64,000 nt of DNA from positions 315,909 through 379,908 of the forward strand of contig MFOC01000007.1 in the NCBI GenBank assembly GCA_001782235.1, given 5' to 3'. The notes under the pieces are model-generated. The model had not been told where the DNA came from. It made no database searches and saw only the letters and a program-made list of their open reading frames with translations. Shown one piece after another: positions 6,838 to 44,750 of this stretch. The first letter of the stretch is position 1; every line of letters starts with the position of its first letter. Source of the DNA: Candidatus Levybacteria bacterium RIFCSPHIGHO2_02_FULL_40_18 (GTDB lineage: Bacteria; Patescibacteriota; Microgenomatia; Levybacterales; GWA1-39-11). A program made the translations under genes and the position numbers.

Positions 6838-8559
6838 ATGAATAGCTTAATTAAAAAGCTAGGTATATTACTAACAACTTTCACGTTTCTTCTTTTTGGA
6901 TTTTTTATTACCGCTCATGCAAATCAAGCACTTGCACACACACTCTCGGGGAATGTTTCAGAAGCATCTGGTACAGATATAGTTGGAGCTGTTGTTGATG
7001 TAATTGATACAACTACTAGTAATAATATAGGAAGTGACACTACAGACAGTTCCGGAAATTATAGCGTAGAAGTAAATAGCGGGACATATGATATAGAAGT
7101 TACACCACCGGGAGGAAGTGGATTTGGCTCCGCAATTGCCCCGAGCAGAACTATTTCGGGTGATACTGTTGTAAATTTTATTTTAGTTCCTGCTGGGCCT
7201 GTTATTCTTAGCGGTCATGTATACGATCGATCTGGAAATGCTGTTCCTAATCAAACGGTAAGATTAGGGGATTCAGCTGGTAATACAACAAGTACGACTA
7301 CAAACAGCAATGGCGAATATTCTTTGCAAGTGTCGCCAGGTACTTTCCGTCTTGATGTAACTGGAGACAATAACCCTGTAACCCTAGAGATTCCAAGAAG
7401 GTACGAGATTACAAAGAATGGTTATTCTCTTACTCAGAGTACGACTTTAGATATTACAATTCCTGCAAAACAAGTAATTACTCATGTCCAAGATGCATCA
7501 GGAAACTCTATAAGTGGAATAGAGATTACCGTTGTACCTCCAACTGGTGTATCAGGAGGAGGTTATTCTATTGGTGGAGGTATTACAAATGCATTTGGCT
7601 CTTCCAGATATGTTAGTCCTGGATTAGTCACGAATCAGAACGGAGACGTAACATTTTGGCTTCTCCCGAATGAAGGGGGCGGCAATACCTATACCTTTAC
7701 AGCAACGCCACCAAGCGGAAGCATTTATTCACCTTTCAATTTAAATAATGTAGTTGTGGTATCGGATCAGACAGAAATAGTTTCACTGCAATTTATTCAT
7801 GATGCGCCGGTTACGACAGCAAACTTGGCAACCCAAAATGCAGACGGAACATACTCTGATCCGACAACAGTCACGCTTTCCGCAACGGCAGCGGAAGGAT
7901 TTACCATTGCCAATACTTATTACACGATTGATGGCGGTGCTCAACAGACTTATTCATCCCCTTTTCAAGTTTCAGGTGATGGACAGCACGCAATCACATT
8001 TTGGTCTATAGATAATGTTGGAGTTTTTGAAAATCCAAATGAACAAATCTTCACGATTAACGCAGTAGATCAGCTTACCTCCCTCTCCCCTGCCAACATC
8101 TGGATAGGTCTTAAGAACAGTGATGATGTTGGAACAAGATTTGATTTGAAAGCCGAAGTGTATAAAAATAGTACTGAACTTGTTAGTTCTGGACAGTTGG
8201 ACAATGTCTGGGGAGGGAGCAGCGGTTTTAATAATGCCAACCTACAAACCATTCCATTTAACACTTTTTCACCTGTAGATTTTCCAGAAGGATCAACTTT
8301 AAGCATTAAGCTATACGTTAGAAATGCTTGTCAAGGGCCTACGCATAATTCAGGAACTGCTCGTCTATGGTATGATGATGCGGCGGCTAATAGTAGATTC
8401 GATGCAACAATAGAAGGAAGCAATAGCAATTACTATCTTAGAAACAATTTTGTTCTTTCAACAGCAGTCGGTATCGGTCCAAAACAAAAGATTGATGTTC
8501 AGGCAGGATCTAAGTGCAGTCCTTTCAAGACCTTTGGAACATGGAGTATCACTCCGTAA
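6838..8559 (+). CDS. secreted cell-surface protein with CarboxypepD_reg-like (Cna-B/prealbumin-fold) repeats
   Basis: N-terminal signal peptide (MNSLIKKLGILLTTFTFLLFGFFITAHANQALA). Repeated SGxV-D-xG-xxGA-V-...-TD-xGxY-...-GTY-...-V units, plus a beta-sandwich-like C-terminal domain. Confidence 0.6.
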   Translation: MNSLIKKLGILLTTFTFLLFGFFITAHANQALAHTLSGNVSEASGTDIVGAVVDVIDTTTSNNIGSDTTDSSGNYSVEVNSGTYDIEVTPPGGSGFGSAIAPSRTISGDTVVNFILVPAGPVILSGHVYDRSGNAVPNQTVRLGDSAGNTTSTTTNSNGEYSLQVSPGTFRLDVTGDNNPVTLEIPRRYEITKNGYSLTQSTTLDITIPAKQVITHVQDASGNSISGIEITVVPPTGVSGGGYSIGGGITNAFGSSRYVSPGLVTNQNGDVTFWLLPNEGGGNTYTFTATPPSGSIYSPFNLNNVVVVSDQTEIVSLQFIHDAPVTTANLATQNADGTYSDPTTVTLSATAAEGFTIANTYYTIDGGAQQTYSSPFQVSGDGQHAITFWSIDNVGVFENPNEQIFTINAVDQLTSLSPANIWIGLKNSDDVGTRFDLKAEVYKNSTELVSSGQLDNVWGGSSGFNNANLQTIPFNTFSPVDFPEGSTLSIKLYVRNACQGPTHNSGTARLWYDDAAANSRFDATIEGSNSNYYLRNNFVLSTAVGIGPKQKIDVQAGSKCSPFKTFGTWSITP

Positions 8560-8845
8560 TTATCCTCTTGCAAAATAAGTTTTCACATAATATATTAAAA
8601 ACGGACTCAGCTTTTCGTAGATCATCTTTTTTTGTGGCGCACTTGTTCAGCAAGGAGATGATCTGAGCTGAGTCCAACAGGTGCGCCATCTTAGATTTAG
8701 GAATACATTAAAAAAATTTTCGCGTTTTCTTTCACTTCTTTTTGTTCTCAAGTTTCCGCCGTTTTCAAAAAGGGCTTTGAAACAATCCGCGCGACCCCCC
8801 ACGCGCGGAAGATTTTTGAGCTTCCTGCAACAGACTCTCTCTGTG

Positions 8846-8916
8846 TCGGGATGTGGGGAATTGAACCCCATCCACACGCACCCCATGCGCGCATTCTACC
8901 GTTAAACTACACCCCG
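8846..8916 (-). tRNA. tRNA-Pro (anticodon GGG)
   Basis: Manual fold of the reverse complement: acceptor CGGGGTG/CATCCCG (one G-U pair), D arm GTTT-AACGGTA-GAAT, anticodon stem CGCGC/GCGTG with loop AUGGGGU (U33, anticodon GGG, G37), T arm GGGG-TTCAATT-CCCC, discriminator A. No CCA is encoded. Confidence 0.8.
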
Positions 8917-10361: not shown

Positions 10362-12017
10362 TTACCAGTTTTCCCTGAGGTGATGCATTGCGTATTCGAG
10401 GGAGCCATTGACTTTTTTGCCGCGATTGAAAATATTCTCCGGGTCAAATATTTTTTTGGTTTCTTCAAAAAGTTTGACGATTTTTTCTCCGTACATTTGT
10501 TTAAGATAGGGAGTTCTGATTAATCCGTCGTTATGTTCTCCCGTTGTCGAACCCCTGTATTCTGTAACTATTTTATACACTTTATTTGAAATCTCAGGAA
10601 TTGCGGTTCTAACTCTTGGATTTTTAATATCAACCAATGGAATTATGTGAAAATTGCCGTTTCCAACGTGTCCTGCAACCGTATAAATAAACTCAGGATA
10701 TTGTTTGAGGATGTCCGTAACCCGCGGCAAAACCTCCGAAATATATTCCGGCTTTATTACAAAATCATCTATAAAAGGAGCTGTGTGCTTATCTCGTATT
10801 TTTTTACGAAGCAAATTAAAACTTTCACGGCGGACCAGCCAATATTTTTTTTCCTGCCCTTCCTCGGCAGTTTGGGTGGTAGGGTGAAGCGGCTTTAATT
10901 TCTCGCGTAGCGCTTGAAGTTTGTCTTCAACCTCGCGTCTTTCATTGCTAGTAAAATCAACCTGAAGAACGAGTTTAGGTAGTTTTCTCCCGGTGAATAA
11001 TTCGAAGAATGCCGGCAAAAAAGCAAGTCCTGCCTCAATCATTCCAAAAAGCCCAAGCTGTTTTGCGAATTCGGGGAAATACTTGAGCGCCAATTTTAAT
11101 GTATTGTCATCATATGACTCAAAACTTTCAGGATTAAGTTCGAGAACCGCGTTAATTATTTGCCCAAGATGAGACATGTCATGAAGGTAAATGATTAACA
11201 TTCCACGGTGTTCGTGAACCGGAACAAGTTCAAGATCCCCCTCAAGCATTAGCCCTAATGTTCCTTGTGCGCCAACCCAAAGTTGAGTTAAGTCGAATGC
11301 TTTTTGTTCGCGATCATATACGTTCCAAAGAAAATATCCCGCCGAATTTTTTGACACATCCGGTTTTGCGTTCATAATCTCATCATAGTTATCATTTATT
11401 AGCTTATACATTTTTTGGTAAATTTCTCCTTCAAAATCGTTTTGCGACATTTTTTCTTTTAGTTCTTGTTCGCCAAGTTTTTTAAATTCATAAGTTTTCC
11501 CGTCTGATAGAACCACTTTTACGCGCCTTACATAATTTTCCGTTTTTCCATATTGGAGCGATTTTTCCCCTCCGGAATTATTATTAAATATTCCTCCCAT
11601 TGCACAGATTCCTTTCGATGCCGGATAAGAAGGGAAAATTAAATTGCGTTTTAATGTTTCTGTCTCGAAATCTCGATAAAAAACGCCCGGCTCTGTTGTC
11701 GAAATATTTCCATTTAGAACAGGTGTATGGTTAAAGTATTTACCAAAAGCTACAATAATCGATTCTGAAAGCGCTCCGCCGCTCATGTCAGTCCCCGCGG
11801 CACGCCCTGTGAGTGAAAGGCCGGGATTTTCTTTTTTATGTTTATTAACAAAATTAACTAGAGACTCAACGTCTTCTTGATCGCGAGGAAAAACCACAAC
11901 CTGGGGTTTCACTTCGAACAATGAAGCATCATGACTATATTCTGTAAGTGTCGTTTCGTCAGTTGAAATATCACCTTTTAAAGATTGTTTAAGCTCCTTT
12001 ATAAGATCATTGTTCAT
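10362..12017 (-). CDS. FAD-binding oxidoreductase (FAD-linked oxidase, GlcD/D-lactate dehydrogenase family)
   Basis: N-terminal FAD-binding PCMH-type region (VVFPRDQEDVESLVNFVNK...LTGRAAGTDMSGGAL) and a C-terminal FAD-oxidase domain. Confidence 0.75.
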   Translation of the reverse strand: MNNDLIKELKQSLKGDISTDETTLTEYSHDASLFEVKPQVVVFPRDQEDVESLVNFVNKHKKENPGLSLTGRAAGTDMSGGALSESIIVAFGKYFNHTPVLNGNISTTEPGVFYRDFETETLKRNLIFPSYPASKGICAMGGIFNNNSGGEKSLQYGKTENYVRRVKVVLSDGKTYEFKKLGEQELKEKMSQNDFEGEIYQKMYKLINDNYDEIMNAKPDVSKNSAGYFLWNVYDREQKAFDLTQLWVGAQGTLGLMLEGDLELVPVHEHRGMLIIYLHDMSHLGQIINAVLELNPESFESYDDNTLKLALKYFPEFAKQLGLFGMIEAGLAFLPAFFELFTGRKLPKLVLQVDFTSNERREVEDKLQALREKLKPLHPTTQTAEEGQEKKYWLVRRESFNLLRKKIRDKHTAPFIDDFVIKPEYISEVLPRVTDILKQYPEFIYTVAGHVGNGNFHIIPLVDIKNPRVRTAIPEISNKVYKIVTEYRGSTTGEHNDGLIRTPYLKQMYGEKIVKLFEETKKIFDPENIFNRGKKVNGSLEYAMHHLRENW

Positions 12018-14105: not shown

Positions 14106-15440
14106 CTATTTTCTTAGTACTATTATTAAATCAGATACATTGGAAGGAAGTCTACCCGTAGTAAGATTATCCCGAGTTTTCTTGAAGAACTCAAAACTAT
14201 TGTTGGTTTCCAAATATTTTAGGGGTTCAATCTCTAATTTTTTTGCTCTCTCGATAGTTTTATAGTCGCCAATTGCGCCTGCATGTTCGGTATTGTCCCA
14301 TCCGTCTGAAGCGAACGAACAAATTGTAATATCGCGGCCGACATGCTCAAGTGCTCCTAAAACTAGTTCTTGGTTTCGCCCGCCGCGACCCTCCCTCTGG
14401 GCCAGAGACTCTCTGGGCCGGAGACTCTTTTTTGCTACGTGAACGGTTGTTTCTCCCCCGCAAAGCAAGATCGAATTAAGATGAGTCTCAGAAATCAATT
14501 TTTTGCCTGCATCTCGTGCCTCTGATTCAAATCGATCGGAGAAAATCTCTGCATGGTAGCCTAGGTCTTTGGCCCCTTTTTGCATTGCAGAAAGTGCCGT
14601 ATCGTTACTTAAAACGATTATATTACGAACATTCTCAAAATATTTTTTATCATGAGGATTTTCAATAAAAGCGTCACGCGTCAAATTTAATTCTTGTTCG
14701 AGGTTATATTTTTTAATGATCCCAATTGCATCTTCAATTGTTGTTGGATCGTAGGCTGTTGGGCCTGAGGCAATGGTTGATAGATCATTTCCGGGAACAT
14801 CTGAATAAATCAAAGCTGCCACTTTTGCGGGGTACAAAATTTGAGCTAATCCTCCGCCTTTAACGTCCGATAAGTGCTTTCTGACTATATTCATTTCGGT
14901 AATATTTGCTCCGGATTTCAAAAGCGCTTTGCCGACCTCTATTTTTTGTTCGAGTGATATTGTATGCGGATGAACAAACATGGCAGACCCGCCGCCGCAA
15001 ATAACAACCAAAACAAGATCTTTTTCGGAAAGATTCGAAAGCCTTTCGAGAACCTTTTGGGTGAATTTAAAATTCGTTTCGGACGGAAGAGGATGAGTTC
15101 CCTTAGTAAATTCAAGTTTTTCAAGGCGAGGCCTTGCATGAGCTTGCCTTTCAGGGATGCTAGTATCGATCACGTAACCCTCCGTTAATTTGTCGGAAAT
15201 TAGATTTTCGAGTATCTTAGCATTCTCGGCCGAACCTTTTCCAAAGCCCAAGATAAAGACTCGTTCGAAATCATCCAGATCGAATTCCTGATCGCCGATC
15301 GTCAAAATATTCCCGTGTCTGTGAACGCTTGTTCTGAAAACCTCCTCCGGCTGAATCGAAGCAAGTGCAGCCTCAACAAGCTCTAAAATAATTTTTCTTT
15401 CAGGCGTCTTTGCAATCTCGGAGAAATTCTTAATAAACAT
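14106..15440 (-). CDS. glycerate 2-kinase (MOFRL family)
   Basis: MOFRL-family motifs (VFILGFGKGSAENAK; LVLVVICGGGSAMF; LLCGGETTVHV). Confidence 0.75.
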   Translation of the reverse strand: MFIKNFSEIAKTPERKIILELVEAALASIQPEEVFRTSVHRHGNILTIGDQEFDLDDFERVFILGFGKGSAENAKILENLISDKLTEGYVIDTSIPERQAHARPRLEKLEFTKGTHPLPSETNFKFTQKVLERLSNLSEKDLVLVVICGGGSAMFVHPHTISLEQKIEVGKALLKSGANITEMNIVRKHLSDVKGGGLAQILYPAKVAALIYSDVPGNDLSTIASGPTAYDPTTIEDAIGIIKKYNLEQELNLTRDAFIENPHDKKYFENVRNIIVLSNDTALSAMQKGAKDLGYHAEIFSDRFESEARDAGKKLISETHLNSILLCGGETTVHVAKKSLRPRESLAQREGRGGRNQELVLGALEHVGRDITICSFASDGWDNTEHAGAIGDYKTIERAKKLEIEPLKYLETNNSFEFFKKTRDNLTTGRLPSNVSDLIIVLRK

Positions 15441-15669: not shown

Positions 15670-16827
15670 ATGGACGATAAAGCTAAATATAGAAAAAAGC
15701 TTGAGGAGGTCTCAAGGATTTCTCTTGAAGAAGCAAAGAGGCAAATTTTAGAAGAAGCAAGAGACGAGGCAAAAGAGGATATTGCCAAAATAATCCGTGA
15801 GGCAGAAGAGGAGGCAAAGGCCACAGCTAATATCAAATCCCGGGAAATTCTTGCAGATGCGCTTCGCCACGGAGCATTAGATATCATTCCCGAATATACT
15901 GTTTCAGTTATAAAAATTCCCGATGAAGACATCAAGGGAAGAATTATTGGTAAGGAAGGTCGCAATATCCGCGCTTTTGAGACCGCAACCGGCGTTGATG
16001 TAGGACTTGATGAGGAAGGGATGATTCGTTTATCTTCCTTTGATTCGGTCCGCCGCGAAATAGCAAGACGTGCCCTCGAACTACTAATTAAAGATACTCG
16101 AATTCAACCAATTCGCATAGAAGAAGTCGTCGAACAACAAAAAAAGGAAGTCTCAAGAATTCTCTTTGAAGAAGGTCAAAAAATTGCAGAAGAAATTGGG
16201 GTATTAAATATTCATCCTGATCTTCTGTCAATGTTAGGACGCTTTAAGTTCAGAACTTCTTTTGGGCAAAATTTGGTAGTCCATTCTCTTGAAGTAGCAA
16301 AAATTGCAAGTCACCTGGCAGTAGAAATTGGTGCGAATGTTGAAATTGCAAAACTCGGGGCACTTTTTCATGATATAGGTAAAGTTGTATCGGACAAAGA
16401 AGGAAGTCACGTGCAATTAGGAGTCGAATTATTACAAAAATACAAAATGCCTCGGGAGGTAATCAATGCGGTGGCAGAGCATCATGAAGATAAGCCATTC
16501 TCGTCAATCGAGTCAGTTCTTGTATATATTGCGGATGCGGCGTCCGGCGGCCGCCCCGGCGCGCGTCATGAAGACGTTGAGGGATACGTTAAGAGAATCC
16601 GCGACATGGAGGAGATTGCAAAAGGGTTCAACGGAGTAACAGATGCATTTGCTTTTGAAGCAGGGAGAGAACTACGTGTAGTCATGGATCCCGGGAAAAT
16701 GGATGACATTGAAACTACAATTGCCGCCAAAAGAATAAAAGAAGAAATCGATAAAAAACTGATTGTCCCGGGCGTTGTTCGAGTAACAGCGATCCGCGAA
16801 TTTCGAGTTTCCGAACCAAAAGAGTAA
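15670..16827 (+). CDS. rny: ribonuclease Y
   Basis: KH domain (IIGKEGRNIRAFETATGVDV) and HD domain (HSLEVAKIASHLAVEIGANVEIAKLGALFHDIGK), with the conserved RPGARHE. Start taken at MDDKAKY; the N-terminal TM helix seen in many RNase Y proteins is missing. Confidence 0.85.
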   Translation: MDDKAKYRKKLEEVSRISLEEAKRQILEEARDEAKEDIAKIIREAEEEAKATANIKSREILADALRHGALDIIPEYTVSVIKIPDEDIKGRIIGKEGRNIRAFETATGVDVGLDEEGMIRLSSFDSVRREIARRALELLIKDTRIQPIRIEEVVEQQKKEVSRILFEEGQKIAEEIGVLNIHPDLLSMLGRFKFRTSFGQNLVVHSLEVAKIASHLAVEIGANVEIAKLGALFHDIGKVVSDKEGSHVQLGVELLQKYKMPREVINAVAEHHEDKPFSSIESVLVYIADAASGGRPGARHEDVEGYVKRIRDMEEIAKGFNGVTDAFAFEAGRELRVVMDPGKMDDIETTIAAKRIKEEIDKKLIVPGVVRVTAIREFRVSEPKE

Positions 16828-24555: not shown

Positions 24556-25086
24556 TTATTTATTTCTCTCGAGGGATTTGTAAAGGACTATTGCCAGACT
24601 GACTATTACATTGAGGCTGACATTTACGCCAAACAGGGGGAGTTCGACAATTTGATCTGAGATTTCAAGAGTCTCTTTTGAGACGCCGCGGGTCTCATTT
24701 CCAACTACTAGCGCGATAGGGAATTCGTAATCTGCCTCCGTATATGGAATACTTTTCGAAGATTGCTCAATCGCAATCACTTTTAGATTTAAGATGTAAG
24801 ATTTAAGATGTAAGATGGCGGATTTGGTGTCAACGACATGCTCCCAGTCGACCCATTCGGTTGTGTTAATCGAAGCCTTCTTGATTCGGGAATTTGGCGG
24901 GGTTTCAGTGTATCCGCAAAGCAAAAGTTTTTTTGCAGCAACTGCATCAGCCAATCGAAAAATTGCACCGACATTATATGTATCCAAGACGTTATCAAGA
25001 ACTATATAAATATCGTTTTTTTTGATTTTACCTTTTTCTTTTTCAGAGGATGAGCTCCGCCTCAATTTATATGCGTTTAACTTCAT
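24556..25086 (-). CDS. SpoU/TrmH-family RNA 2'-O-methyltransferase
   Basis: SPOUT motifs (IYIVLDNVLDTYNVGAIFRLADA ... ALVVGNETRGVS ... LNVIVSLAIVLY). Confidence 0.75.
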   Translation of the reverse strand: MKLNAYKLRRSSSSEKEKGKIKKNDIYIVLDNVLDTYNVGAIFRLADAVAAKKLLLCGYTETPPNSRIKKASINTTEWVDWEHVVDTKSAILHLKSYILNLKVIAIEQSSKSIPYTEADYEFPIALVVGNETRGVSKETLEISDQIVELPLFGVNVSLNVIVSLAIVLYKSLERNK

Positions 25087-27152
25087 TGTTCACTTGGGGC
25101 AGGGGTAGATGGCACAGCTTGTTTCACAAGTTGGGCTTTAGTCCACACCGCAAAATCACACTTTGGATAGTTGCCGCATCCGTAAAATGTTCGGCCGCGG
25201 CGCGTCCTTTTCAGTACCATCTTACCTTGGTCGCGAGGGCATAAGTAACCCGATTCCTCAGCAAAAGATTCACGGAATTTGCAGTTCGGAAAATTAGAGC
25301 ATGCCTTAAACTTACCGAATCTACCGATTCTAATAACAACGTCACCGCCGTCGAGCGGACATTTTTCGCCTGTTTTTTCAAGCTCAATCTTAATTTTTTT
25401 CTCCTCTTGCGCATCTTTTAAGTGCTTCTCGAATGGTCCGTAAAATTCTTTTATAACCGGAACCCAGTCCGTTTTACCGTCTGCTACCTCATCAAGTTTG
25501 TCTTCCATAGACGCTGTAAAAGGAATATCATCTATTGTTGAGAAGTTTTTAACCAAAAAATCATTCACCAGAGTCCCTATCTCAGTTGGCTTAAAGCGAT
25601 TTTCTTCTTTTTCAACATAAAATCTTGCTTCTATTGTTGAAATAATCGGCGCATAAGTTGAGGGACGTCCGATTCCGTGTTCCTCAAGCGCACTAATCAA
25701 AGATGCTTCACTATATCTTGGAGGCGGATTGGTATTGTGAGAGGTGATATTAATTTTGCGAAGATCCAATTTTTCATCTTTTTGAAGTTCCGGTATCAAC
25801 TGCTCTTCATCCTCGTAAAACCAGATTTTAAGAAATCCATCGAATTTTATCACGCGACCATTTGCTACAAAATCATAAGCTTTGCTATCTTTCACCTGGG
25901 CCTCGACTCGGGTAGAAAGGAATACTGCATCTGCCATTTGAGTTGATAGAGCTCTTTTATATATAAGACTGTAAAGCTTTGCAAAATCTCTTCCGAGTTT
26001 TGCAGTGACCGTCTCTTCATCTTCGAATAAATTAGTGGGGCGTATTGCTTCGTGTGCTTCTTGAGCAAGCTTTGATTTCGTATGGTAAATTCGGGGTGTT
26101 TGAGGTAGGTATTTTCCCCCAAAATTTTTCTCAATATAATTTCTTGCAGCGGATATAAATTCATTCGAAAGATTGTAGGAATCGGTTCTGTGATAGCTTA
26201 TAAAGCCTTCTTCATATAATCTCTGTGCTAAGCCCATGGTTCGTTTACTTGTGTAACCGAAACGGCGAGAAGCCTCAATCTGAAGAAGCGATGTGGTAAA
26301 GGGAGGATAAGGCGCACGTTTTGTTTCTTTTTGAATTACGTCTGTAACAACAAAATCTTTATTTGCAAGATCGTTCTGGATTGATTCGGCATCCGTGTTC
26401 GACAATCGGGTTTCGGCATATTTGTATTCCCCATCATAAAGAGGTAGGGTAGTTGTTTTTTCAATCGGCTCATCGTTTATCTTAACCAACTCAAAAGTTA
26501 TCGGCTGGTTTTCTCCCCTCCAGGCCGGAGGCCCTCCAGGGCCGGAGGCCTGTTTATTAACGACGACAAAAACTCTATAAAATTCTGTGCTTTTGAATTT
26601 TTCAATTTCGCGCTCACGCTCAACAATTAATCGAAGCGCTATAGACTGAACGCGACCGGCTGACAATCCCTTTTTGATTTTCATCCAAAGAATTGGCGAA
26701 AGCTTGTATCCTACAACTCGATCTAAAACACGTCTTCCGGTTTGCGCGGCAACAAGATTCATGTCTATCTCCTTTGGATGTTCCAAGGCTTCGTTAATTG
26801 CGGTAGGCGTGATTTCATGGAAGACAATTCGATCGAACTTAGTTTTCTTATTTTCCTCCGATAAAACCGTTTTGAGATGATATGAGATTGCTTCTCCTTC
26901 GCGGTCCGGATCTGTTGCCAAAATTATTCGATCGACATCTTTTACTTCCTCAATTAAACCCTCAACAATTTTCCTCTTATCTTTTGGGATTACATACGAG
27001 GGTGTGAAGTCATGATCAATATCCACCCCCAAAGCCCCCTTTGGCAAATCTCGAATATGCCCCATCGATGCCTCTATTTTGTACTTTTCTCCAAGAAACC
27101 TCGATAATGTTTTCGCCTTAGTGGGAGACTCGACAAGTATTAAAGATTTCAT
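25083..27152 (-). CDS. topA: DNA topoisomerase I
   Basis: Toprim N-terminus (LILVESPTKAKTLSRFLG...GHIRDLP), the Topo IA core, and C-terminal Zn-ribbon repeats (CPLDGG..., CPRDQGKM..., CGNYPKC). Confidence 0.9.
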   Translation of the reverse strand: MKSLILVESPTKAKTLSRFLGEKYKIEASMGHIRDLPKGALGVDIDHDFTPSYVIPKDKRKIVEGLIEEVKDVDRIILATDPDREGEAISYHLKTVLSEENKKTKFDRIVFHEITPTAINEALEHPKEIDMNLVAAQTGRRVLDRVVGYKLSPILWMKIKKGLSAGRVQSIALRLIVEREREIEKFKSTEFYRVFVVVNKQASGPGGPPAWRGENQPITFELVKINDEPIEKTTTLPLYDGEYKYAETRLSNTDAESIQNDLANKDFVVTDVIQKETKRAPYPPFTTSLLQIEASRRFGYTSKRTMGLAQRLYEEGFISYHRTDSYNLSNEFISAARNYIEKNFGGKYLPQTPRIYHTKSKLAQEAHEAIRPTNLFEDEETVTAKLGRDFAKLYSLIYKRALSTQMADAVFLSTRVEAQVKDSKAYDFVANGRVIKFDGFLKIWFYEDEEQLIPELQKDEKLDLRKINITSHNTNPPPRYSEASLISALEEHGIGRPSTYAPIISTIEARFYVEKEENRFKPTEIGTLVNDFLVKNFSTIDDIPFTASMEDKLDEVADGKTDWVPVIKEFYGPFEKHLKDAQEEKKIKIELEKTGEKCPLDGGDVVIRIGRFGKFKACSNFPNCKFRESFAEESGYLCPRDQGKMVLKRTRRGRTFYGCGNYPKCDFAVWTKAQLVKQAVPSTPAPSEQ

Positions 27153-28377: not shown

Positions 28378-28610
28378 AAATTGTTTCGCCTGCCCCGTAT
28401 AAGCGTCCTCGCGACGCGAGGACGAAGACCTCGGGAGTAAGTAAGCTTTGTGCGGGGTCACAAGAGGTCTCAATAGCCAAAACTCTCATTGAAATAAAGA
28501 AATTGGTTGTAAGAAATTGGAAAATGGTTATGGAAACTAGATATTGGAAATTGGTTTGTTTTAAAAAACTATTTTCTATTTTCCTATAACTATTTTCTAT
28601 CTTCTCTTTG

Positions 28611-39737: not shown

Positions 39738-42512
39738 ATGCTTGGTGTTTTGTCTAAGTTTTTTGACTCAAACGAGCGAGAGATTAAAAAATTTTTACCC
39801 ATTGTTGATGAGATCAATGCTCTTTCGGAGAAAACTAAAAAACTTCGCGATTCTGATTTTCCAAAAAAAACAGAAGAACTAAAAAAAAGAATAGAAAAAG
39901 GCGAAAGTATTTTCATGGTTTTACCTGAAGCTTTCGCTCTTGTACGTGAAGCTTCTCTAAGAACCACGGGTTTACGGCCATATGATGTTCAACTAATCGC
40001 GGCCACTGTTCTTTCTCAAGGCAAAGTCGCAGAGCAAAAAACAGGAGAAGGAAAAACTCTTTCGGCAGTCCCCGCCCTATACTTGAACGCCCTTACAGGC
40101 AATACGGTTCATCTTGTTACCGTAAATGACTATCTTGCTCGTCGTGACGCAGGATGGATGGGGGCAATTTTTGACTTTTTAGGAATGAACGTTTCCTCAA
40201 TAATTTCCGATGCTTCTTTTATTTACGATACCAAATACACAGATGAATCGGCACAGGACTTCAGGCTCCTTCATCTCAGGCCTATATCTCGAAAAGAAGC
40301 ATATCAAGCCAATATAGTTTACGGAATCAATTCTGAATTTGGATTCGATTATCTTCGCGACAACATGGTCTTTAATAGCGAACAATTGGCTCAAACAGGA
40401 CACACATATGCAATTATTGATGAGGTAGACTCGGTTTTAATCGATGAAGCAAGAACGCCCCATATAATCTCAATGCCGGACGCTACGCCTTCCCAAAAAT
40501 ATTATGAATATGCAAAAATTGTCGATAAACTCAACAAGGAAATAGACTATAAAGTAGATGAGAAGACAAGAACTGCACACTTAACAGATCACGGGATTGA
40601 AAAGGTTGAAAAGCTTTACGGCGTCAAAGATATATATGAAAAGGATTTTGATACGGTTTATCATATAGAAGCCGCTCTTAAGGCAAATACCCTGTTTCAT
40701 AAAGACCGCGATTACATTGTCCGCGACAACCAAGTTATTCTAGTTGATGAGTTTACCGGAAGACTTCTTGAAGGAAGGCGTTTGTCAGAAGGTCTCCATC
40801 AGGCAATTGAGGCAAAGGAAGGCGTCGCGATCCAGCAAGAGTCAAAAACTCTTGCAACTGTTTCTCTTCAAAACTACTTCAGAATGTATGAAAAGATTGC
40901 GGGAATGACGGGAACAGCCGTAACTGAGGCTGAGGAGTTTCAAAAGATCTACAAACTTGATGTAGTTTCGATCCCTACTCATAAAGAGATGATTCGCGAA
41001 GATCTTGGCGATCAGATCTATAAGACTACGCGCGCAAAAGTGGCTGCAGTAGTTAGGGAGATTGAGGAAGCACATAAAAAAGGACAGCCGGTGTTAGTTG
41101 GCACTACATCAATTGATAAGAACGAAATAATTTCAGAATATCTAAAAAGAAAAGGGATCCTGCACGAGGTTTTAAATGCTAAAAATCACATTCGGGAGGC
41201 AATGATTATTCAGAATGCGGGTAAAAAAGGCGCGGTTACAGTTGCGACAAATATGGCTGGTCGAGGGGTAGATATTATTTTAGGAGGCCAGCCTCCATCA
41301 CAATTTGATATTGCCCACAAGGGAAAAAGCGGTCAGAAAAAACTTCGTGAAGATATGGAGAGATGGCAGAAGGAGCATGATGAGGTGGTCTCGCTTGGCG
41401 GGCTTTATTTAATTGGTACCGAAAAACACGAATCAAGAAGAATTGATAATCAGCTAAGGGGAAGATCTGGCCGCCAAGGAGATCCCGGAAAATCTATGTT
41501 CATTGTTTCTTTGGAGGATGATCTTATGAGAGTCTTTGGGGGAGAGCAGATTTCAAACCTAATGACTCGGTTTAATTTTCCGGAGGATCAACCACTCGCC
41601 CATGGTTTAGTTTCGCGTGTTATAGAACAAGCGCAAGTCAAGGTAGAAGGGTTTAATTTTGAAGCAAGAAAACACCTTCTTGATTATGACGATGTTTTAA
41701 ACAAGCAAAGAGAAATTATCTATAAAATGAGACAAGGAGTAGTAGGGAATGAAGCCGCCGGCCCAGAGGCCTCTGGCCAGAGGGATGATATAGTTGAAAT
41801 AGTTTTAGGGAAAGTCGCGAGCGTAATTGCAAATAATGTTCAATTTAATCTTTCAACAGAAACCCAAGAAGACGGGCGCAAAACCATAATTTCGGAATTC
41901 GCAAGCATTGTCCCCTTTGATGAACATTCGCAAGAACATCTCTATAAACAAATTCAGCAATATCAAACCGCAGAACAAATTTCGGACTTTTTAATCGGAA
42001 TAGCAAAGCAAATTTCTAAGAAATGGGAAGAGCAATTTGGCCGCGATCATTTGGCTCACGCATATAAAATCGTATTTCTATCAACAATCGATAATCTCTG
42101 GATGGACCATTTAACCTCGATGGAAGATCTTAGAACAGGAATCGGGCTACGGGGCTACGGACAGAGAGATCCTCTTATCGAATACAAAAACGAGGCATTT
42201 ACCATGTTTGAGCGTTTAATTTCGCAAATTGACGACGGTATAGCTCACCGCGCTTTTCGAATTAACATCGGAGAAATTCCTCCTCCGGCAGTCAGAGTAA
42301 ATATACAAGCAAACGTTCCGGAGTCAGAAGTGGGAGAAAAAGCTGAGAAGGTTAGCCGAGCTCCGCAAATCGCGAATCGAACAGAAATAGCTTCGAATAA
42401 TAATTTGAATGGTACTACAGGTGTCGAAAAAAAGAAAATCGGCCGCAACGACCCCTGCCCTTGCGGTTCGGGAAAGAAGTGGAAAAAGTGCCACTATCCC
42501 AACCTCCCATAA
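39738..42512 (+). CDS. secA: preprotein translocase ATPase SecA
   Basis: SecA DEAD motor motifs and the C-terminal Zn finger CPCGSGKKWKKCH. Confidence 0.92.
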   Translation: MLGVLSKFFDSNEREIKKFLPIVDEINALSEKTKKLRDSDFPKKTEELKKRIEKGESIFMVLPEAFALVREASLRTTGLRPYDVQLIAATVLSQGKVAEQKTGEGKTLSAVPALYLNALTGNTVHLVTVNDYLARRDAGWMGAIFDFLGMNVSSIISDASFIYDTKYTDESAQDFRLLHLRPISRKEAYQANIVYGINSEFGFDYLRDNMVFNSEQLAQTGHTYAIIDEVDSVLIDEARTPHIISMPDATPSQKYYEYAKIVDKLNKEIDYKVDEKTRTAHLTDHGIEKVEKLYGVKDIYEKDFDTVYHIEAALKANTLFHKDRDYIVRDNQVILVDEFTGRLLEGRRLSEGLHQAIEAKEGVAIQQESKTLATVSLQNYFRMYEKIAGMTGTAVTEAEEFQKIYKLDVVSIPTHKEMIREDLGDQIYKTTRAKVAAVVREIEEAHKKGQPVLVGTTSIDKNEIISEYLKRKGILHEVLNAKNHIREAMIIQNAGKKGAVTVATNMAGRGVDIILGGQPPSQFDIAHKGKSGQKKLREDMERWQKEHDEVVSLGGLYLIGTEKHESRRIDNQLRGRSGRQGDPGKSMFIVSLEDDLMRVFGGEQISNLMTRFNFPEDQPLAHGLVSRVIEQAQVKVEGFNFEARKHLLDYDDVLNKQREIIYKMRQGVVGNEAAGPEASGQRDDIVEIVLGKVASVIANNVQFNLSTETQEDGRKTIISEFASIVPFDEHSQEHLYKQIQQYQTAEQISDFLIGIAKQISKKWEEQFGRDHLAHAYKIVFLSTIDNLWMDHLTSMEDLRTGIGLRGYGQRDPLIEYKNEAFTMFERLISQIDDGIAHRAFRINIGEIPPPAVRVNIQANVPESEVGEKAEKVSRAPQIANRTEIASNNNLNGTTGVEKKKIGRNDPCPCGSGKKWKKCHYPNLP

Positions 42513-42624: not shown

Positions 42625-43269
42625 ATGGTTACAGTGCCTGAAGCTACTAAAAAGATTGTCGAACGTTCAAGATATCTTTCAGAGGCTATCTCGAAAGGTC
42701 TTATAAACTATTCGTCTCTTGCACGCTATATAAAGCCTGAACTTGAGGAAATGCTTTTAAAAAAAGTAAGCATCGCATCTATAATTATGGCTTTAAACCG
42801 CCTCGAATCTGATTTTCAACCAAAGTTTACGCAAAGCAATATTTTTAAAACTCCTCCGGAAATCACAGTTCGCTCAAATCTGATCTTAGCAGGGCTGTCG
42901 AATATTGATGTTCAAGGGCTATCGATACTTATCTCGCGTGACACTAATTCTCGTTCGCTTTTTTTAAAAAATCAGGGGATACACGAGGCCTCGTTTATTA
43001 TGAGTCAAGATTTATTCGAGAAATACAAAAATACTATAGAAAGCAAGAATCCTTTGGTGTTTCAGGATAAAGTTTCGACCATTACAATTTACCTACCCAA
43101 GGAAGCGCAGGAAACCTCTGGAATCTATTATTTTTTTCTAAAATCCCTTGCCTGGGAGGGTATAAACATACTCGAATTAGTTTCAACACCACAAGAACTT
43201 ACCATTGTTGTTTCCGACCATGATGTCGAGAGAGCGTTTGGTATTATTAAGTCCCTGTTCGCTTCCTAA
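42625..43269 (+). CDS. hypothetical protein (possible ACT-like regulatory domains)
   Basis: 214 aa with two beta-alpha-beta-beta-alpha-beta-like segments. Weak call. Confidence 0.35.
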   Translation: MVTVPEATKKIVERSRYLSEAISKGLINYSSLARYIKPELEEMLLKKVSIASIIMALNRLESDFQPKFTQSNIFKTPPEITVRSNLILAGLSNIDVQGLSILISRDTNSRSLFLKNQGIHEASFIMSQDLFEKYKNTIESKNPLVFQDKVSTITIYLPKEAQETSGIYYFFLKSLAWEGINILELVSTPQELTIVVSDHDVERAFGIIKSLFAS

Positions 43270-44750
43270 TCTTTCGAATCATAATTGACTTTGTACAAAT
43301 AAGCAGTTCCGATTTGCTTCTCAAGTCTTATTTTCCCAACCTTTTCCATATTTTTTACTCCCTCGCGAAAGTTCCGGGGGCTTTCGAGAAGCTGAATGAG
43401 AGTTTGTTGCTCGCTTAAGTTAACCATTATATATTCGGCTTCTTTTGGGAAATCAAGCCACCAGCAGAGCTTTCTTCCGCAGGGATTATTCTCAATTTCA
43501 TGTTCGCGAGGATATATTAGATAGATTTGGTTTCTGTGAGAAATGTGGGGGACTATGTTTTGCGTCGAGGCAATACTCGCATCTTTCGGGATAGACGTGA
43601 TTAGCTTTCCCGTGTCTTTCATCCATTGTTCGCTCTTATAATATATTGGCTTTGACAATTTATTTAGAGCAAAGTGGAATTTGTATTGCAGGAGGAGAGC
43701 TACGGATACCATTACAATAGCAATAATCTCGGGCTTTCCCGCGAAGCGGGATCCCGCCCTGCGGGAAAATTTTCGCTTCAAAATATTAATTGCGTCCAGA
43801 GTCCCCAATAGTAAAAATGGTGCAAGGATTGCCCTGTGATGCATAAATGGGCTCCACATTCGTGCAAAGGCTTCGCCCGTTACAAAATATTGCGAAAGAT
43901 CAAGCGTAACCGCAAGAATTGCTCCGGGCGAGAGAAGAGGAAGAGCGGAGAACCAGGAAAATGAATAAAGCCACACCTGTTGTTTTTCTTGGCTATTGAA
44001 GAAATTGCTGATTAGATTTGCTGGCTGTAAGTCGATTTGAGGTGTATATTCGAACCCAATCGGCGAGAAATATCGAGTTAGAGTGATAGCGATAAGCGTT
44101 GCTAAAAAACCTCCAAAGATGAATCCTAGCGCAGCTTTACGATATTGTTTTTGAAACAAATAAATAAGTCCCAGAGAAGCAAGGGCGATGCCCATGTTTT
44201 CCTGTGTTAGAAGTAGTAAAATTATTGATCCGGATAACAGTTTCCAGTTTTTTGTTTCCAAAAAATAAGCGATCCAAGGAATTAAACCCACCCCTATTGC
44301 AACGGGATGAAAATCAAAAAATACCAAAAATTGTATTCCGTAGAAAAGGCTATAGACAAAGCTTAAACATAGGGCTACTAATGAAAAATAGCCTCTATTT
44401 CGCACCAAAAGAAATATGGGAAGCGCAGAAAGACTTACCCAAAACGCCTGAAAAAGCAATAAGATTCTTACATCATCCCAAATCCAAAAAAGGGGCGAAA
44501 GAAGCGGGAGAGTTAACGCAAGATGATCACCTAAGATAAACCTATTTTTAATTGTGTTGTATGGAGCCTGAAATTGAGAATATTGCCAGATGGATTGATC
44601 GTAAAGACCAAGATCAAAGGCGCCCGATTGGAAATTGTTATGTCGCACAATAGAAAGTGTCGAATAGAGCATAGTCAAAGTAACAATCCATACAAACAGA
44701 AGCTTTACGGAAGATCGTTCGATTAATGGAATAAATCCCTTAAGATTCAT
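43266..44750 (-). CDS. DUF2079-family integral membrane protein
   Basis: Polytopic protein with the DUF2079 N-terminal motif (RHNNFQSGAFDLGLYDQSIWQ). Confidence 0.7.
   Translation of the reverse strand: MNLKGFIPLIERSSVKLLFVWIVTLTMLYSTLSIVRHNNFQSGAFDLGLYDQSIWQYSQFQAPYNTIKNRFILGDHLALTLPLLSPLFWIWDDVRILLLFQAFWVSLSALPIFLLVRNRGYFSLVALCLSFVYSLFYGIQFLVFFDFHPVAIGVGLIPWIAYFLETKNWKLLSGSIILLLLTQENMGIALASLGLIYLFQKQYRKAALGFIFGGFLATLIAITLTRYFSPIGFEYTPQIDLQPANLISNFFNSQEKQQVWLYSFSWFSALPLLSPGAILAVTLDLSQYFVTGEAFARMWSPFMHHRAILAPFLLLGTLDAINILKRKFSRRAGSRFAGKPEIIAIVMVSVALLLQYKFHFALNKLSKPIYYKSEQWMKDTGKLITSIPKDASIASTQNIVPHISHRNQIYLIYPREHEIENNPCGRKLCWWLDFPKEAEYIMVNLSEQQTLIQLLESPRNFREGVKNMEKVGKIRLEKQIGTAYLYKVNYDSKD

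Follow-up and report, generated by a model that had tools for sequence, protein, structure and literature searches.

Several known systems of repeated palindromic DNA are comparable to the element considered here. The Rickettsia palindromic elements (RPE), ~150 bp in length, belong to about ten families confined to Rickettsia and are found in frame within many unrelated, often housekeeping, genes as well as in intergenic DNA, the added peptide segment being tolerated by the function of the protein (PMC10969869). The GC clusters of yeast mitochondria are short GC-rich palindromes of an AT-rich genome, mostly intergenic but in some cases genic, where they constitute optional in-frame insertions; their copies merge or decay fast, AG-type flanks have been discussed as their targets, and the examples within genes comprise the in-frame cluster of var1 and, in Magnusiomyces, the "byp" inserts, which are bypassed in translation (PMC8811140). 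The REP and REPIN sequences, moved by RAYT (Y1 HUH) transposases, are non-autonomous, GC-rich imperfect palindromes of 20–40 nt without target duplication; REPs lie outside genes and bear a conserved tetranucleotide of the GTAG type, and each species or genus has its own, accompanied by a single RAYT gene. Finally, bacterial MITEs such as QMITE of Coxiella, ERIC and Correia usually measure 50–500 bp, are flanked by target-site duplications and have a recognisable parent IS.

The insertion in secA

The locus considered here lies in a 64,000-nt stretch of DNA (the window, 39% GC) of a Levybacteria genome, in which a sequence-only reading had singled out a GC-rich palindromic segment, inserted in frame in secA, as the third of a family of short palindromes residing in essential genes. 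The features concerned are the following.

39738..42512, plus strand: secA ORF, 924 aa, in which the insertion lies
41754..41783, plus strand: 30-nt in-frame insertion GCCGCCGGCCCAGAGGCCTCTGGCCAGAGG, encoding AAGPEASGQR (residues 673–682)
41764..41775, no strand assigned: perfect 12-nt palindrome CAGAGGCCTCTG in the insertion, with only one copy in the window

Positions 41748–41790 read AATGAA GCCGCCGGCCCAGAGGCCTCTGGCCAGAGG GATGAT, corresponding in the SecA frame to N-E-AAGPEASGQR-D-D within a peptide that, as inferred from translation, runs ...GNEAAGPEASGQRDDIV...; 24 of the 30 inserted bases are G or C, and GGCC begins at 41760, 41768 and 41775. The insertion is real. Indeed, AAGPEASGQR is missing in the five closest SecA homologues (83–85% identity; P0002–P0006), which have NE|EDIV or NE|GDIV with no residues in between, and altogether in ~115 of 120 relatives; empty sites are likewise observed at the DNA level (AATGAA|GAGGAT in L001, AATGAG|GGGGAT in L003). 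Conservation of the segment in SecA relatives, the finding that would have refuted an insertion, is not encountered.

The alignment places the segment at the junction between the scaffold helix and the helical wing, as had been anticipated. In the AlphaFold model, residues 673–682 are coil with a pLDDT below 50, between helices 623–670 and 685–706, and the insertion is accordingly predicted to be a disordered loop joining the scaffold helix to the wing domain. The length of SecA at this site is variable among homologues, the E. coli protein being longer there, and the site is filled in three separate clades, each having empty sister lineages.

Structure of the element

The sequence to which the secA segment belongs, hereafter family 1, is the 33-nt quasi-palindrome GCCGCCGGCCCAGAGGGCCTCTGGCCCGGAGGG, with the consensus pattern GCC[G/A/T]CCGGCCCAGAGGGCCTCTGGCCCGGAGGG. 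By inspection of the consensus, it consists of two arms of 16 nt around one central G, complementary at 13 of 16 positions, and it folds into one 12-bp hairpin with two mismatches (DNA ΔG −10.9 kcal/mol), in which stem pair 12/22 covaries among copies, being A-T, G-T or G-C. The element is ~85% G+C and stop-free in every frame, a property that does not qualify as a special design, since 42–73% of composition-matched shuffles are equally stop-free.

Together with the next G (41784), the secA insertion gives a 31-nt match to this consensus with 3 edits, and it is identical at 30 of 31 positions to an intergenic copy (L072) in an unrelated contig of 34% GC. Two of the traits that define family 1, namely a distance of few edits from GCCGCCGGCCCAGAGGGCCTCTGGCCCGGAGGG and presence/absence at orthologous sites, are thus displayed by the secA copy. 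On the other hand, the single imperfect 12-bp hairpin is not formed by the secA copy, whose fold (−5.9 kcal/mol) is no better than that of shuffles: it is a decayed, poorly folding member, and its 12-nt palindrome CAGAGGCCTCTG is the old stem apex of the element from which the central G has been lost. The perfect palindrome and the GGCC repeats noticed at the outset are present, but they do not describe the element, which in its canonical form is one imperfect 33-nt hairpin and not a set of GGCC repeats round a 12-mer.

Derivation of the secA copy from the 33-mer would require three 1-nt deletions, each of which, taken singly, shifts the frame of an essential gene. The copy may alternatively stem from a 31-nt subfamily, represented by L072, in which case one base at the boundary would belong to both element and flank; the precise insertion junction is not resolvable.

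Related copies in the window

The sequence-only reading had proposed that the secA segment shares its core with an insert in a glycerate kinase gene. The 8-mer GGCCAGAG is indeed common to the secA insertion and to positions 14400–14407 of the kinase ORF, but its occurrence in the window (three times, against 0.85 expected) is matched by 9 of 100 shuffles. Short shared words alone are not significant; the weight of the evidence rests on full-length comparison. Screening of the window against the 33-nt consensus, with up to 7 edits allowed, gave exactly three segments, those of SecA (3 edits), kinase (5) and TopA (5), whereas in five shuffled windows there was none. The two further copies and their host genes are listed below.

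14106..15440: glycerate 2-kinase (DUF4147/MOFRL) ORF, with a 33-nt in-frame insertion (LRPRESLAQRE) formed by the family-1 copy
14393..14425, minus strand: family-1 copy GTCTCCGGCCCAGAGAGTCTCTGGCCCAGAGGG, 5 substitutions and no indel
25083..27152: topoisomerase I ORF, with a net 33-nt in-frame insertion (region QASGPGGPPAWRGE) formed by the family-1 copy
26516..26549, minus strand: family-1 copy GCCTCCGGCCCTGGAGGGCCTCCGGCCTGGAGGG, 5 edits

All three window insertions are lineage-specific and in frame, so that the status of the secA segment as third member of a family of short palindromes is borne out by a search of the coding sequences. The kinase insertion is missing in 117 of 120 homologues, and the same site in L007 holds a copy with 27 of 33 positions identical and no derived changes in common. 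The kinase copy also has the look of a tandem duplication, AGTCTCYGGCCCAGAG occurring twice. Net insert lengths in SecA, kinase and TopA are 30, 33 and 33 nt, and the inserts that other lineages have at these sites measure 33, 21 and 33 nt; every measured value is a multiple of 3, the regularity for which the sequence-only reading had suggested looking.

Not far from secA, the window holds an element of a different sequence, family 2, whose behaviour is like that of family 1.

43266..44750: DUF2079 membrane-protein ORF, host gene of the family-2 element
43737..43766, no strand assigned: 30-nt perfect double hairpin TCCCGCGAAGCGGGA|TCCCGCCCTGCGGGA, fold z = −3.3, in frame as SRRAGSRFAG on the minus strand

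Further copies of family 2 occur in L076 (29/30, within the TopA loop) and in L063 (28/30), and the element is orthologously shared between L003 and L004. Reoccupation of the same loop is a recurrent observation: the TopA loop contains three different hairpin families in three lineages, and the SecA, kinase and TopA loops have received independent insertions in other lineages, including two further 30-nt hairpin families, one of them being the family found in the DUF2079 gene of the window. The layout of families 2 and 3 is a tandem double hairpin and not a head-to-head arrangement.

Four other GC-rich islands occur in the window, at 445–478, 11770–11825, 16526–16579 and 42440–42472. Considered as candidate insertions, they were judged, by eye and from Pfam labels, to be native conserved motifs: the S9 C-terminus, an FAD-binding motif, the RNase Y motif GGRPGAR and the SecA zinc finger. 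An explanation of the element by GGCC avoidance or restriction sites was discarded, the window having 112 GGCC sites against 93 expected.

Dispersal across genomes

A pattern scan for the 33-mer over the contigs of 185,579 species genomes yielded 60 loci, against ~1 by chance as estimated from the information content of the pattern and the size of the database. The 33-mer is identical or nearly so across these loci, and the unique flanks diverge directly beyond GCC...GGAGGG; this near-invariance is in part forced by the exact-match pattern used in the scan. The carriers are Levybacteria, Woesebacteria, other Patescibacteria, Syntrophales-type MAGs and a few other lineages, and the matches derive from many independent source projects, long-read MAGs included.

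The contexts are heterogeneous. At least 8 canonical copies, in addition to all three window copies, lie within coding sequences; four unrelated domains contain them in frame (LytR_cpsA_psr, DnaX_C, NFACT-R_2 and abhydrolase), as does a 5′-3′ exonuclease in its C-terminal tail. In five unrelated genes the copy is located directly 5′ of the ribosome-binding site, GGAGGG immediately preceding AGGTGA; some copies occupy intergenic gaps of 49 nt, and in Syntrophales-type MAGs the 33-mer is nested in a MITE-like repeat of ~140 nt, where it forms the apex. A restriction of the family to this genome or to coding regions is accordingly ruled out by the copies in other genomes, in UTRs and in intergenic DNA. 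As to the idea of a family residing in essential genes, the in-frame part holds whereas "essential" is incidental, copies being found also in non-essential genes, in 5′ UTRs and in another repeat. Presence and absence are found together in a single assembly, GCA_016204525.1, in which the intergenic copy L043 is present and the kinase (L008) and TopA (P0245) sites are empty.

Transport by phages or plasmids was rejected: a single viral contig of IMG/VR carries family-1 copies, family 2 is absent from viral contigs, PLSDB plasmids give no match, and GenBank phages give one match, at chance level. No Rfam family was retrieved at gathering threshold from 8 element-bearing loci. Literature searches returned nothing relevant for the exact sequence in either orientation and only known analogues for in-frame palindromic elements in Patescibacteria.

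Orientation, target and mobilising enzyme

About 19 of 20 copies in coding sequences or UTRs are in the sense orientation with respect to the gene. No target-site duplication is seen when filled and empty sites are compared (SecA, kinase) or in 25 pairs of flanks, the flanking dinucleotides being identical at 3 of 25 sites, approximately as by chance. A duplication of "AG", though it yields a perfect Shine–Dalgarno sequence in L032, fails for the L007 kinase copy and was abandoned. A purine is found at position −1 in 25 of 25 sites and at +1 in 23 of 25, and AG on both flanks in 3 of 25. This purine|purine preference is too weak to account for repeated insertion at one codon, so that either a selection for permissive loops or a targeting rule as yet unrecognised is needed.

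An all-against-all BLAST of 828 ORFs from the 60 loci revealed no recurrent neighbour gene or transposase, the sole recurrent neighbours being spurious ORFs that span the MITE, and neither a transposase nor a RAYT appears among the best 25 of the 89 Pfam families of the 60 window ORFs, which are housekeeping only. Since no transposase or recurrent gene adjoins the copies, the inference of mobility has no other basis than their distribution; polymorphism within one population, which would attest to very recent transposition, has not been seen. Three traits of IS200/IS605-type elements are displayed, namely insertion without target duplication, hairpin ends and strand bias. As to the other traits of that system, insertion 3′ of a fixed target of 4–5 nt and a TnpA (Y1) enzyme acting on the hairpin, conservation is limited to the purines at −1 and +1, and no enzyme has been identified.

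Origin of the secA segment

The interpretation that best fits these data, to which we assign a probability of roughly 0.75, is that the segment in secA represents an old copy, now partly decayed, of a palindromic mobile element that is ultra-short, non-autonomous and so far undescribed.

An origin on the spot, by slippage, duplication or hairpin-templated synthesis in a variable SecA loop, the likeness to other sequences being a coincidence of G+C-rich Gly, Pro and Ala codons, could find support in the variable length of the SecA site (with its longer E. coli segment), in the resemblance of the kinase copy to a AGTCTCYGGCCCAGAG tandem duplication and in the lack of significance of the shared 8-mer. 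It is nevertheless very improbable, and already effectively refuted, given the 30/31 identity with an intergenic copy in an unrelated contig of 34% GC, the presence of the 33-mer, only 3 edits away, at 60 loci in other genomes and the absence of comparable matches in shuffled windows. The possibility that the segment arose in assembly or sequencing, for instance from a chimeric read or an adapter-like hairpin, can be considered negligible: an identical 33-mer in very different organisms could mimic a contaminant, yet the secA insertion is in frame with one gene on both sides, the same inserts recur in at least 4 NCBI MAGs, in 24 contigs of the species (identical-length cluster members) and in SRA-derived assemblies, divergence or decay is evident among the copies, some of which are orthologous (family 2 in L003/L004, the kinase copy of L007), and numerous independent projects contribute to the matches, long-read MAGs among them.

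Two further explanations have been considered. A cis-acting DNA or RNA site under selection, for instance a hairpin with a Shine–Dalgarno-like GGAGG or a protein-binding palindrome, might have been spread by recombination without being selfish, the secA copy being then a relic; the strong conservation between phyla, the marked sense-strand bias, the five copies adjoining ribosome-binding sites and the covariation at one stem pair all speak in this sense. What renders it improbable is the mixture of contexts (four unrelated domains, C-terminal tails, UTRs and a MITE), the emptiness of most orthologous sites, the lack of an Rfam match and the decay of the window copies by 3–5 edits, with loss of the SecA fold, which is unexpected for a maintained site. 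Slightly more improbable still is a scar left upon excision of a larger transposon or integrative element having GC-rich TIRs, of which ~16 nt per end would have remained head to head. The near-perfect inverted 16-nt arms round one central base are what such an event would leave, and neither a target-site duplication nor a nearby transposase is seen; on the other hand, halves split by cargo are found at 0 of ~80 loci, and the same central G recurs at dozens of independent sites, whereas repair scars are normally variable at the junction. Furthermore, some copies reside inside a different small repeat or in intergenic gaps of 49 nt, and the two other families are tandem double hairpins instead of head-to-head arms.

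If the secA segment is a decayed mobile element, as we favor, the element would have entered secA as DNA at the purine-rich stretch GAA|GAK, which codes for the loop between the long scaffold helix and the helical wing domain. With a length divisible by 3 and no stop codon in any frame, the insertion would merely have lengthened a tolerant loop at the protein surface by ~10–11 residues, small or charged, leaving the gene functional, and could then have become fixed in this Levybacteria species. Translation of the insert, as opposed to its bypassing, is an inference, and so is its neutrality. Subsequent loss of the central G and of two other bases, together with one substitution, would have left the 12-nt perfect DNA palindrome and low hairpin-forming ability, and because little of this ability remains the secA copy is probably no longer mobile.

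The transposition chemistry, and with it the way in which the element moves, is likewise inferred. The imperfect hairpin with fixed mismatches, the absence of target duplication and the strong orientation bias fit an element that is moved in trans, in the form of a single-stranded hairpin, by an enzyme of HUH/Y1 type, in the style of IS200/IS605 or REP-RAYT; this is the guess we prefer, though we hold it to be less likely than not.

Implications

A wider generalization can be made, though we hold it to have somewhat less than an even chance of being correct: families 1–3 would constitute an undescribed class comprising the smallest known bacterial mobile elements, single or double hairpins of 30–33 nt whose every insertion preserves the frame by virtue of length (a multiple of 3) and composition. 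Patescibacteria (CPR) and the anaerobes that live alongside them, such as Syntrophales, would actively exchange these elements; the enzyme or mechanism moving them would be one as yet unlinked to them, and they would contribute significantly to the loop insertions found in housekeeping proteins of the CPR.

Should the interpretation as a mobile element be right, the occurrence of selfish palindromes inside protein genes, described in Rickettsia and in the mitochondria of fungi, would also include the Candidate Phyla Radiation, with an element several-fold shorter than every described bacterial case. The near base-for-base sharing between phyla would indicate that the element has recently spread, by horizontal transfer, through the communities of anoxic groundwater and sediment, and it might be used to trace the exchange of DNA between CPR bacteria and their neighbours or hosts. 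The lineage-specific loop insertions that are frequent in CPR proteins would acquire a concrete, testable origin, and GC-rich inserts of 10–11 residues such as PPAQRASGPEG, AAGPEGLWPGG and RRPRGPLARRE would be footprints of mobile elements and not homologous characters, a distinction calling for caution on the part of annotators and phylogeneticists. Were the enzyme that mobilises a hairpin of 33 nt to be discovered, it might be useful in biotechnology.

Comparison with known systems

Family 1 resembles the RPE in being palindromic, in occurring in frame in unrelated genes and also between genes, and in adding a peptide that the protein tolerates (PMC10969869). It departs from them in length (30–33 nt instead of ~100–150 bp), in consisting of a single hairpin and in being near-identical in Patescibacteria, Syntrophales-type and other MAGs, whereas the RPE are confined to one genus.

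With REP and REPIN, family 1 has in common the GC-rich imperfect palindrome of 20–40 nt, the non-autonomous nature, the lack of target duplication and a presumed activity as a single-stranded DNA hairpin. Unlike REPs, it has intragenic copies and a sequence shared across phyla, and GTAG/CTAC is found neither in its consensus nor adjoining it; among the best 25 Pfam families of the window ORFs and the recurrent neighbours at the 60 loci, no RAYT was found.

The likeness to the mitochondrial GC clusters resides in the short GC-rich palindrome inserted, optionally and in frame, in genes of an AT-rich genome (PMC8811140). These clusters are fungal, organellar and of unknown mechanism (a ribozyme activity has been proposed), whereas family 1 has a bacterial host, in Patescibacteria; the AG/TAG terminal repeats of the former are not matched by the purine-rich flanks of the latter, with AG on both sides in the few cases mentioned above. 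Moreover, translational bypassing is not required for family 1, because every genic copy seen keeps the frame.

QMITE, ERIC and Correia share with family 1 the non-autonomous nature and the inverted ends and are at times translated in host proteins (PMC5896051, PMC10969869). The arms of family 1 satisfy the definition of terminal inverted repeats; at 33 nt, it is below the usual size of MITEs and lacks their target-site duplications, no parent IS has been recognised for it, and in Syntrophales-type genomes it is itself the cargo of a MITE-like repeat.

The insert in secA

The sequence-only reading had described positions 41751-41790 as an in-frame GC-rich palindromic insert in secA, the third member of a family. 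The analysis confirms the observation, and supports and extends the interpretation given there: the segment is a fixed, decayed, frame-preserving copy belonging to a family of short palindromic elements (family 1), found within and outside the window, whose mobility is inferred from their distribution. The window contains three such copies, and a second family occupies a DUF2079 gene there.

41754-41783, plus strand: secA insert, GCCGCCGGCCCAGAGGCCTCTGGCCAGAGG, encoding AAGPEASGQR in frame
39738..42512, plus strand: secA ORF, 924 codons, assigned from Pfam (SecA_DEAD, P-loop_SecA, SecA_SW) and from an alignment with solved structures of SecA
14106..15440, minus strand: glycerate 2-kinase ORF (DUF4147/MOFRL) with a family-1 copy, coding strand GTCTCCGGCCCAGAGAGTCTCTGGCCCAGAGGG
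25083..27152, minus strand: topoisomerase I (TopA) ORF with a family-1 copy, GCCTCCGGCCCTGGAGGGCCTCCGGCCTGGAGGG, a net 33-nt insertion
43737-43766, in frame in the minus-strand DUF2079 membrane-protein ORF 43266..44750: family-2 element, TCCCGCGAAGCGGGA|TCCCGCCCTGCGGGA

With 24 of its 30 bases being G or C in a window of ~39% G+C, the secA insert is among the most GC-rich 30-mers of the window. The 12-nt perfect palindrome CAGAGGCCTCTG is indeed present at 41764-41775, GGCC occurs at three sites in the segment, and GGCCAGAG is common to the segment and the glycerate-kinase ORF (14400-14407); by themselves these short words are not in excess over chance, and the frequency of GGCC in the rest of the window is not unusual.

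SecA proteins from Candidatus Levybacteria (Patescibacteria/CPR) are the best homologues of the secA product. In the five nearest homologues, at 83-85% identity, the junction is RNE|EDIV or RNE|GDIV, with zero residues against the ten of the window, and the ten-residue insert is likewise missing from ~115 of the 120 best matches; at the DNA level the empty sites read AATGAA|GAGGAT (locus L001) and AATGAG|GGGGAT (L003). The segment is an insertion, with empty sites in both protein and DNA. An assembly error was rejected as its source, the identical insert being present in the same-length cluster members, which represent no fewer than four NCBI MAGs from this one species (RIFCSPHIGHO2_02_FULL_40_18 and RIFCSPHIGHO2_01_FULL_40_58 among them) and 24 contigs.

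In the AlphaFold model (60 homologues) the insert corresponds exactly to residues 673-682, predicted as a coil with pLDDT <50; the long scaffold helix (623-670) precedes it and the first helix of the wing domain (685-706) follows. Since E. coli SecA has a longer segment here in the alignment to solved structures, length variation is tolerated at the site. The effect on SecA itself, a floppy loop, is probably nil, and the interest rests with the element family and not with SecA.

In the closest relative, secA is followed a few kb downstream by a gene of the bAvd / 23S_rRNA_IVP family (L003, 12090-12455; L004, 11280-11645), which is missing from the syntenic place in the window; bAvd serves diversity-generating retroelements as an accessory protein.

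Further copies and repeated insertion in the same loops

Two further GC-rich islands of the window, in the kinase and TopA genes, look like the secA insert. The kinase insert (33 nt, LRPRESLAQRE) immediately precedes the conserved GRGGRNQE motif and is lacking in 117 of 120 homologues, the empty site of locus L008 reading AAAAGC|GGTCGA, while the TopA loop carrying the insert is NKK-NSNQP in most relatives. Scanning the window by edit distance from the family consensus yielded exactly three sites (SecA 3 edits, kinase 5, TopA 5) and zero matches in five shuffled windows; all three are in the sense orientation of their host gene.

The remaining GC-rich islands (S9 C-terminus, FAD-binding motif, RNase Y GGRPGAR, SecA zinc finger), some with Pfam labels, were read by us as native conserved motifs and not as inserts. 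Strong GC-rich hairpins also occur at 28404-28424 (CGTCCTCGCG-A-CGCGAGGACG, 10-bp stem, near the start of a TsaD-like ORF) and at 8779-8812 (CCGCGCG-N8-CGCGCGG, beside tRNA-Pro(GGG) at 8845-8916); they may represent additional hairpin elements or else terminators.

In a neighbor-joining tree the insert-bearing SecA proteins fall into three separate clades, each with empty sisters: the window protein (P0001); P0020, whose gene has a 21-nt truncated copy, CGCCCCACAGGGCCTCTCGGG; and P0022 with P0024, in which an AT-rich remnant and a half-decayed 33-nt copy are found, respectively. In locus L007, whose kinase is 73% identical at the protein level, CGCCGGCCCGGAGGGCCTCTGCCCCGGAGGGAG occupies exactly this position; 27 of 33 bases equal those of the window copy, with zero shared derived changes, and all relatives closer than L007 are empty at this site. 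The same TopA loop contains three different hairpin elements in three lineages, namely family 1 in the window, family 2 in L076 (TCCCGCGAAACGGGATCCCGCCCTGCGGGA, a 29/30 copy) and family 3 in L075 at ~3601-3630 (P0250; CCGCCTTTGGCGAGTCTCGCCTCTGGCGGA, 30 nt, PPLASLASGG). The window's family-2 element, 30 nt long, consists of two perfect hairpins in tandem (DNA dG -12.5 kcal/mol, z = -3.3) and is DNA-identical in the L003/L004 orthologue of the DUF2079 ORF; another copy (28/30) occurs in L063, and none was found in viral contigs. These genomes thus harbor three or more families of GC-rich hairpin elements, 30-33 nt in length, that behave alike.

Family 1 in other genomes

The pattern CCGGCCCRGAGN{2,3}CTCYGSCCN{0,1}RGAGGG, derived from the window and L007 copies, was searched in 596 Gb of species-representative genomes, where ~1 match or fewer was expected by chance, and yielded 60 loci. 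The matched sequence is near-invariant, reaching four bases left of the pattern, and defines the 33-nt consensus GCC[G/A/T]CCGGCCCAGAGGGCCTCTGGCCCGGAGGG; directly beyond it the flanks of the unique-context loci differ. The near-invariance is in part due to ascertainment, since only exact pattern matches are retrieved; the window's own three copies would have been missed.

As labelled, eight carriers are Patescibacteria MAGs (four Levybacteria, two Woesebacteria, two others), ~ten are Thermodesulfobacteriota / "Deltaproteobacteria" / Syntrophaceae MAGs, several of them multi-copy, and four are low-GC Gammaproteobacteria MAGs; single matches occur in one MAG of the Anaerolineae and in a few more MAGs. 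The low-GC Gammaproteobacteria labels may be unreliable, since one such locus (L026) has two proteins in common with the Levybacteria locus L032. Upstream of one gene in L026 (~2155-2277) are two family-1 copies 90 nt apart. Family 1 was not found in PLSDB plasmids and is essentially missing from GenBank phages; in IMG/VR a single viral contig has it, IMGVR_UViG_3300009127_000006 (53.5 kb; L069, L070, L077, L078), with at least five copies in repeated upstream regions.

According to Pfam, canonical copies lie in frame inside or beside unrelated proteins of different genomes:

L020: LytR_cpsA_psr domain
L063: DnaX_C
L052: NFACT-R_2 of a ThiI-like protein
L025: alpha/beta-hydrolase
L047: C-terminal tail of a 5'-3' exonuclease

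Six copies are read as PPAQRASGPEG, two as AGPEGLWPGGS and one (L037) is antisense, and five more occupy short intergenic gaps directly 5' of an AGGTGA ribosome-binding site of unrelated genes. In GCA_016204525.1 an intergenic copy (L043) coexists with an empty kinase site (L008) and an empty TopA loop (P0245). The L043 copy lies within GGATTTA repeats, and a similar setting is seen at L072 (~8140-8180; contig of 34% GC), where a variant of 31 nt that matches the secA copy at 30/31 positions is flanked on both sides by GAAAATT, a 7-nt unit repeated in tandem. Syntrophales-type genomes contain many copies of a ~140-nt repeat bounded by terminal inverted repeats AAACCCCGTTAGAAAT (e.g., L053 ~1930-2100, among L009-L068). 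Its central hairpin has the 33-mer at the apex, so that family 1 is here carried as cargo by a MITE-like element, which subsequently multiplied.

Fold, target and mode of propagation

The consensus folds into a single hairpin of 12 bp, interrupted by two single mismatches and closed by a 3-nt loop. The stem pair 12/22 is A-T in canonical copies; three loci have G-T instead, and G-C is seen in L062, in the TopA copy of the window and in the viral copies, a covariation that gives modest evidence for the importance of the fold. In the secA copy the central G is missing and folding is no stronger than for shuffled sequence, so that this copy is probably inert.

At 25 independent sites the preceding base is a purine in all cases and the following base in 23 (A in 16), within A/G-rich surroundings (Lys and Glu codons, Shine-Dalgarno regions). 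This purine preference is the only visible target rule, despite repeated insertion at the same codon boundary; selection may suffice to explain the latter, if essential proteins have only few loops that tolerate an insert, and an unrecognised targeting rule remains possible. A length that is a multiple of three, which the sequence-only reading had suggested as a point to check, is intrinsic to family 1, whose intergenic copies also measure 33 nt, and is prone to ascertainment for families 2 and 3, both found in genes; the absence of stops in all six frames is largely a consequence of composition. Reduction of a 33-mer to 30 nt in the essential secA would entail, by three separate 1-nt deletions, a frameshift at each step; a 31-nt subfamily exists (L072), and the last G of the secA copy may be shared with the flank. 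Family-1 sequences are strikingly alike in CPR and Syntrophales-type genomes; position 4, often A in the former and G in the latter, argues for propagation within lineages rather than cross-contamination.

Comparison of filled and empty SecA and kinase sites revealed no target-site duplication, and no transposase was found among the neighbor genes of the 60 loci or, among the Pfam matches listed, in the window ORFs. Movement by a single-strand HUH/Y1 system (IS200/IS605, REP-RAYT) would fit an element that forms one imperfect hairpin, makes no target duplication, favors one strand and has no coding capacity, and is inference only. Approximately 19 of 20 gene or UTR copies are in sense orientation; this cannot be separated from replication direction because the window's genes, mostly on the minus strand up to ~31.2 kb, are all on the plus strand beyond it, and GC skew becomes positive after ~32 kb. 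The region at ~29.7-32.6 kb may be a replication origin.

Comparison with known systems

No Rfam family matched the element and, within an incomplete literature coverage, no paper was found containing the 33-mer or describing such elements in Patescibacteria, so that "undescribed" is provisional. Rickettsia palindromic elements (~150 bp) occur in frame in many genes (PMC10969869); the GC clusters of yeast mitochondria are short, optional GC-rich palindromes, in frame in var1 and with AG/TAG flanks, and those of Magnusiomyces are bypassed during translation (PMC8811140). Family 1 differs from the Rickettsia elements in size and host, from REP in its lack of an exclusively extragenic location and of the GTAG motif, from MITEs in target duplication and size, and from GC clusters in not having an organellar host. 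On the other hand, Rickettsia palindromic elements, yeast mitochondrial GC clusters, REP/REPIN and in-frame-fusing MITEs are its closest analogues, and family 1 works alike.
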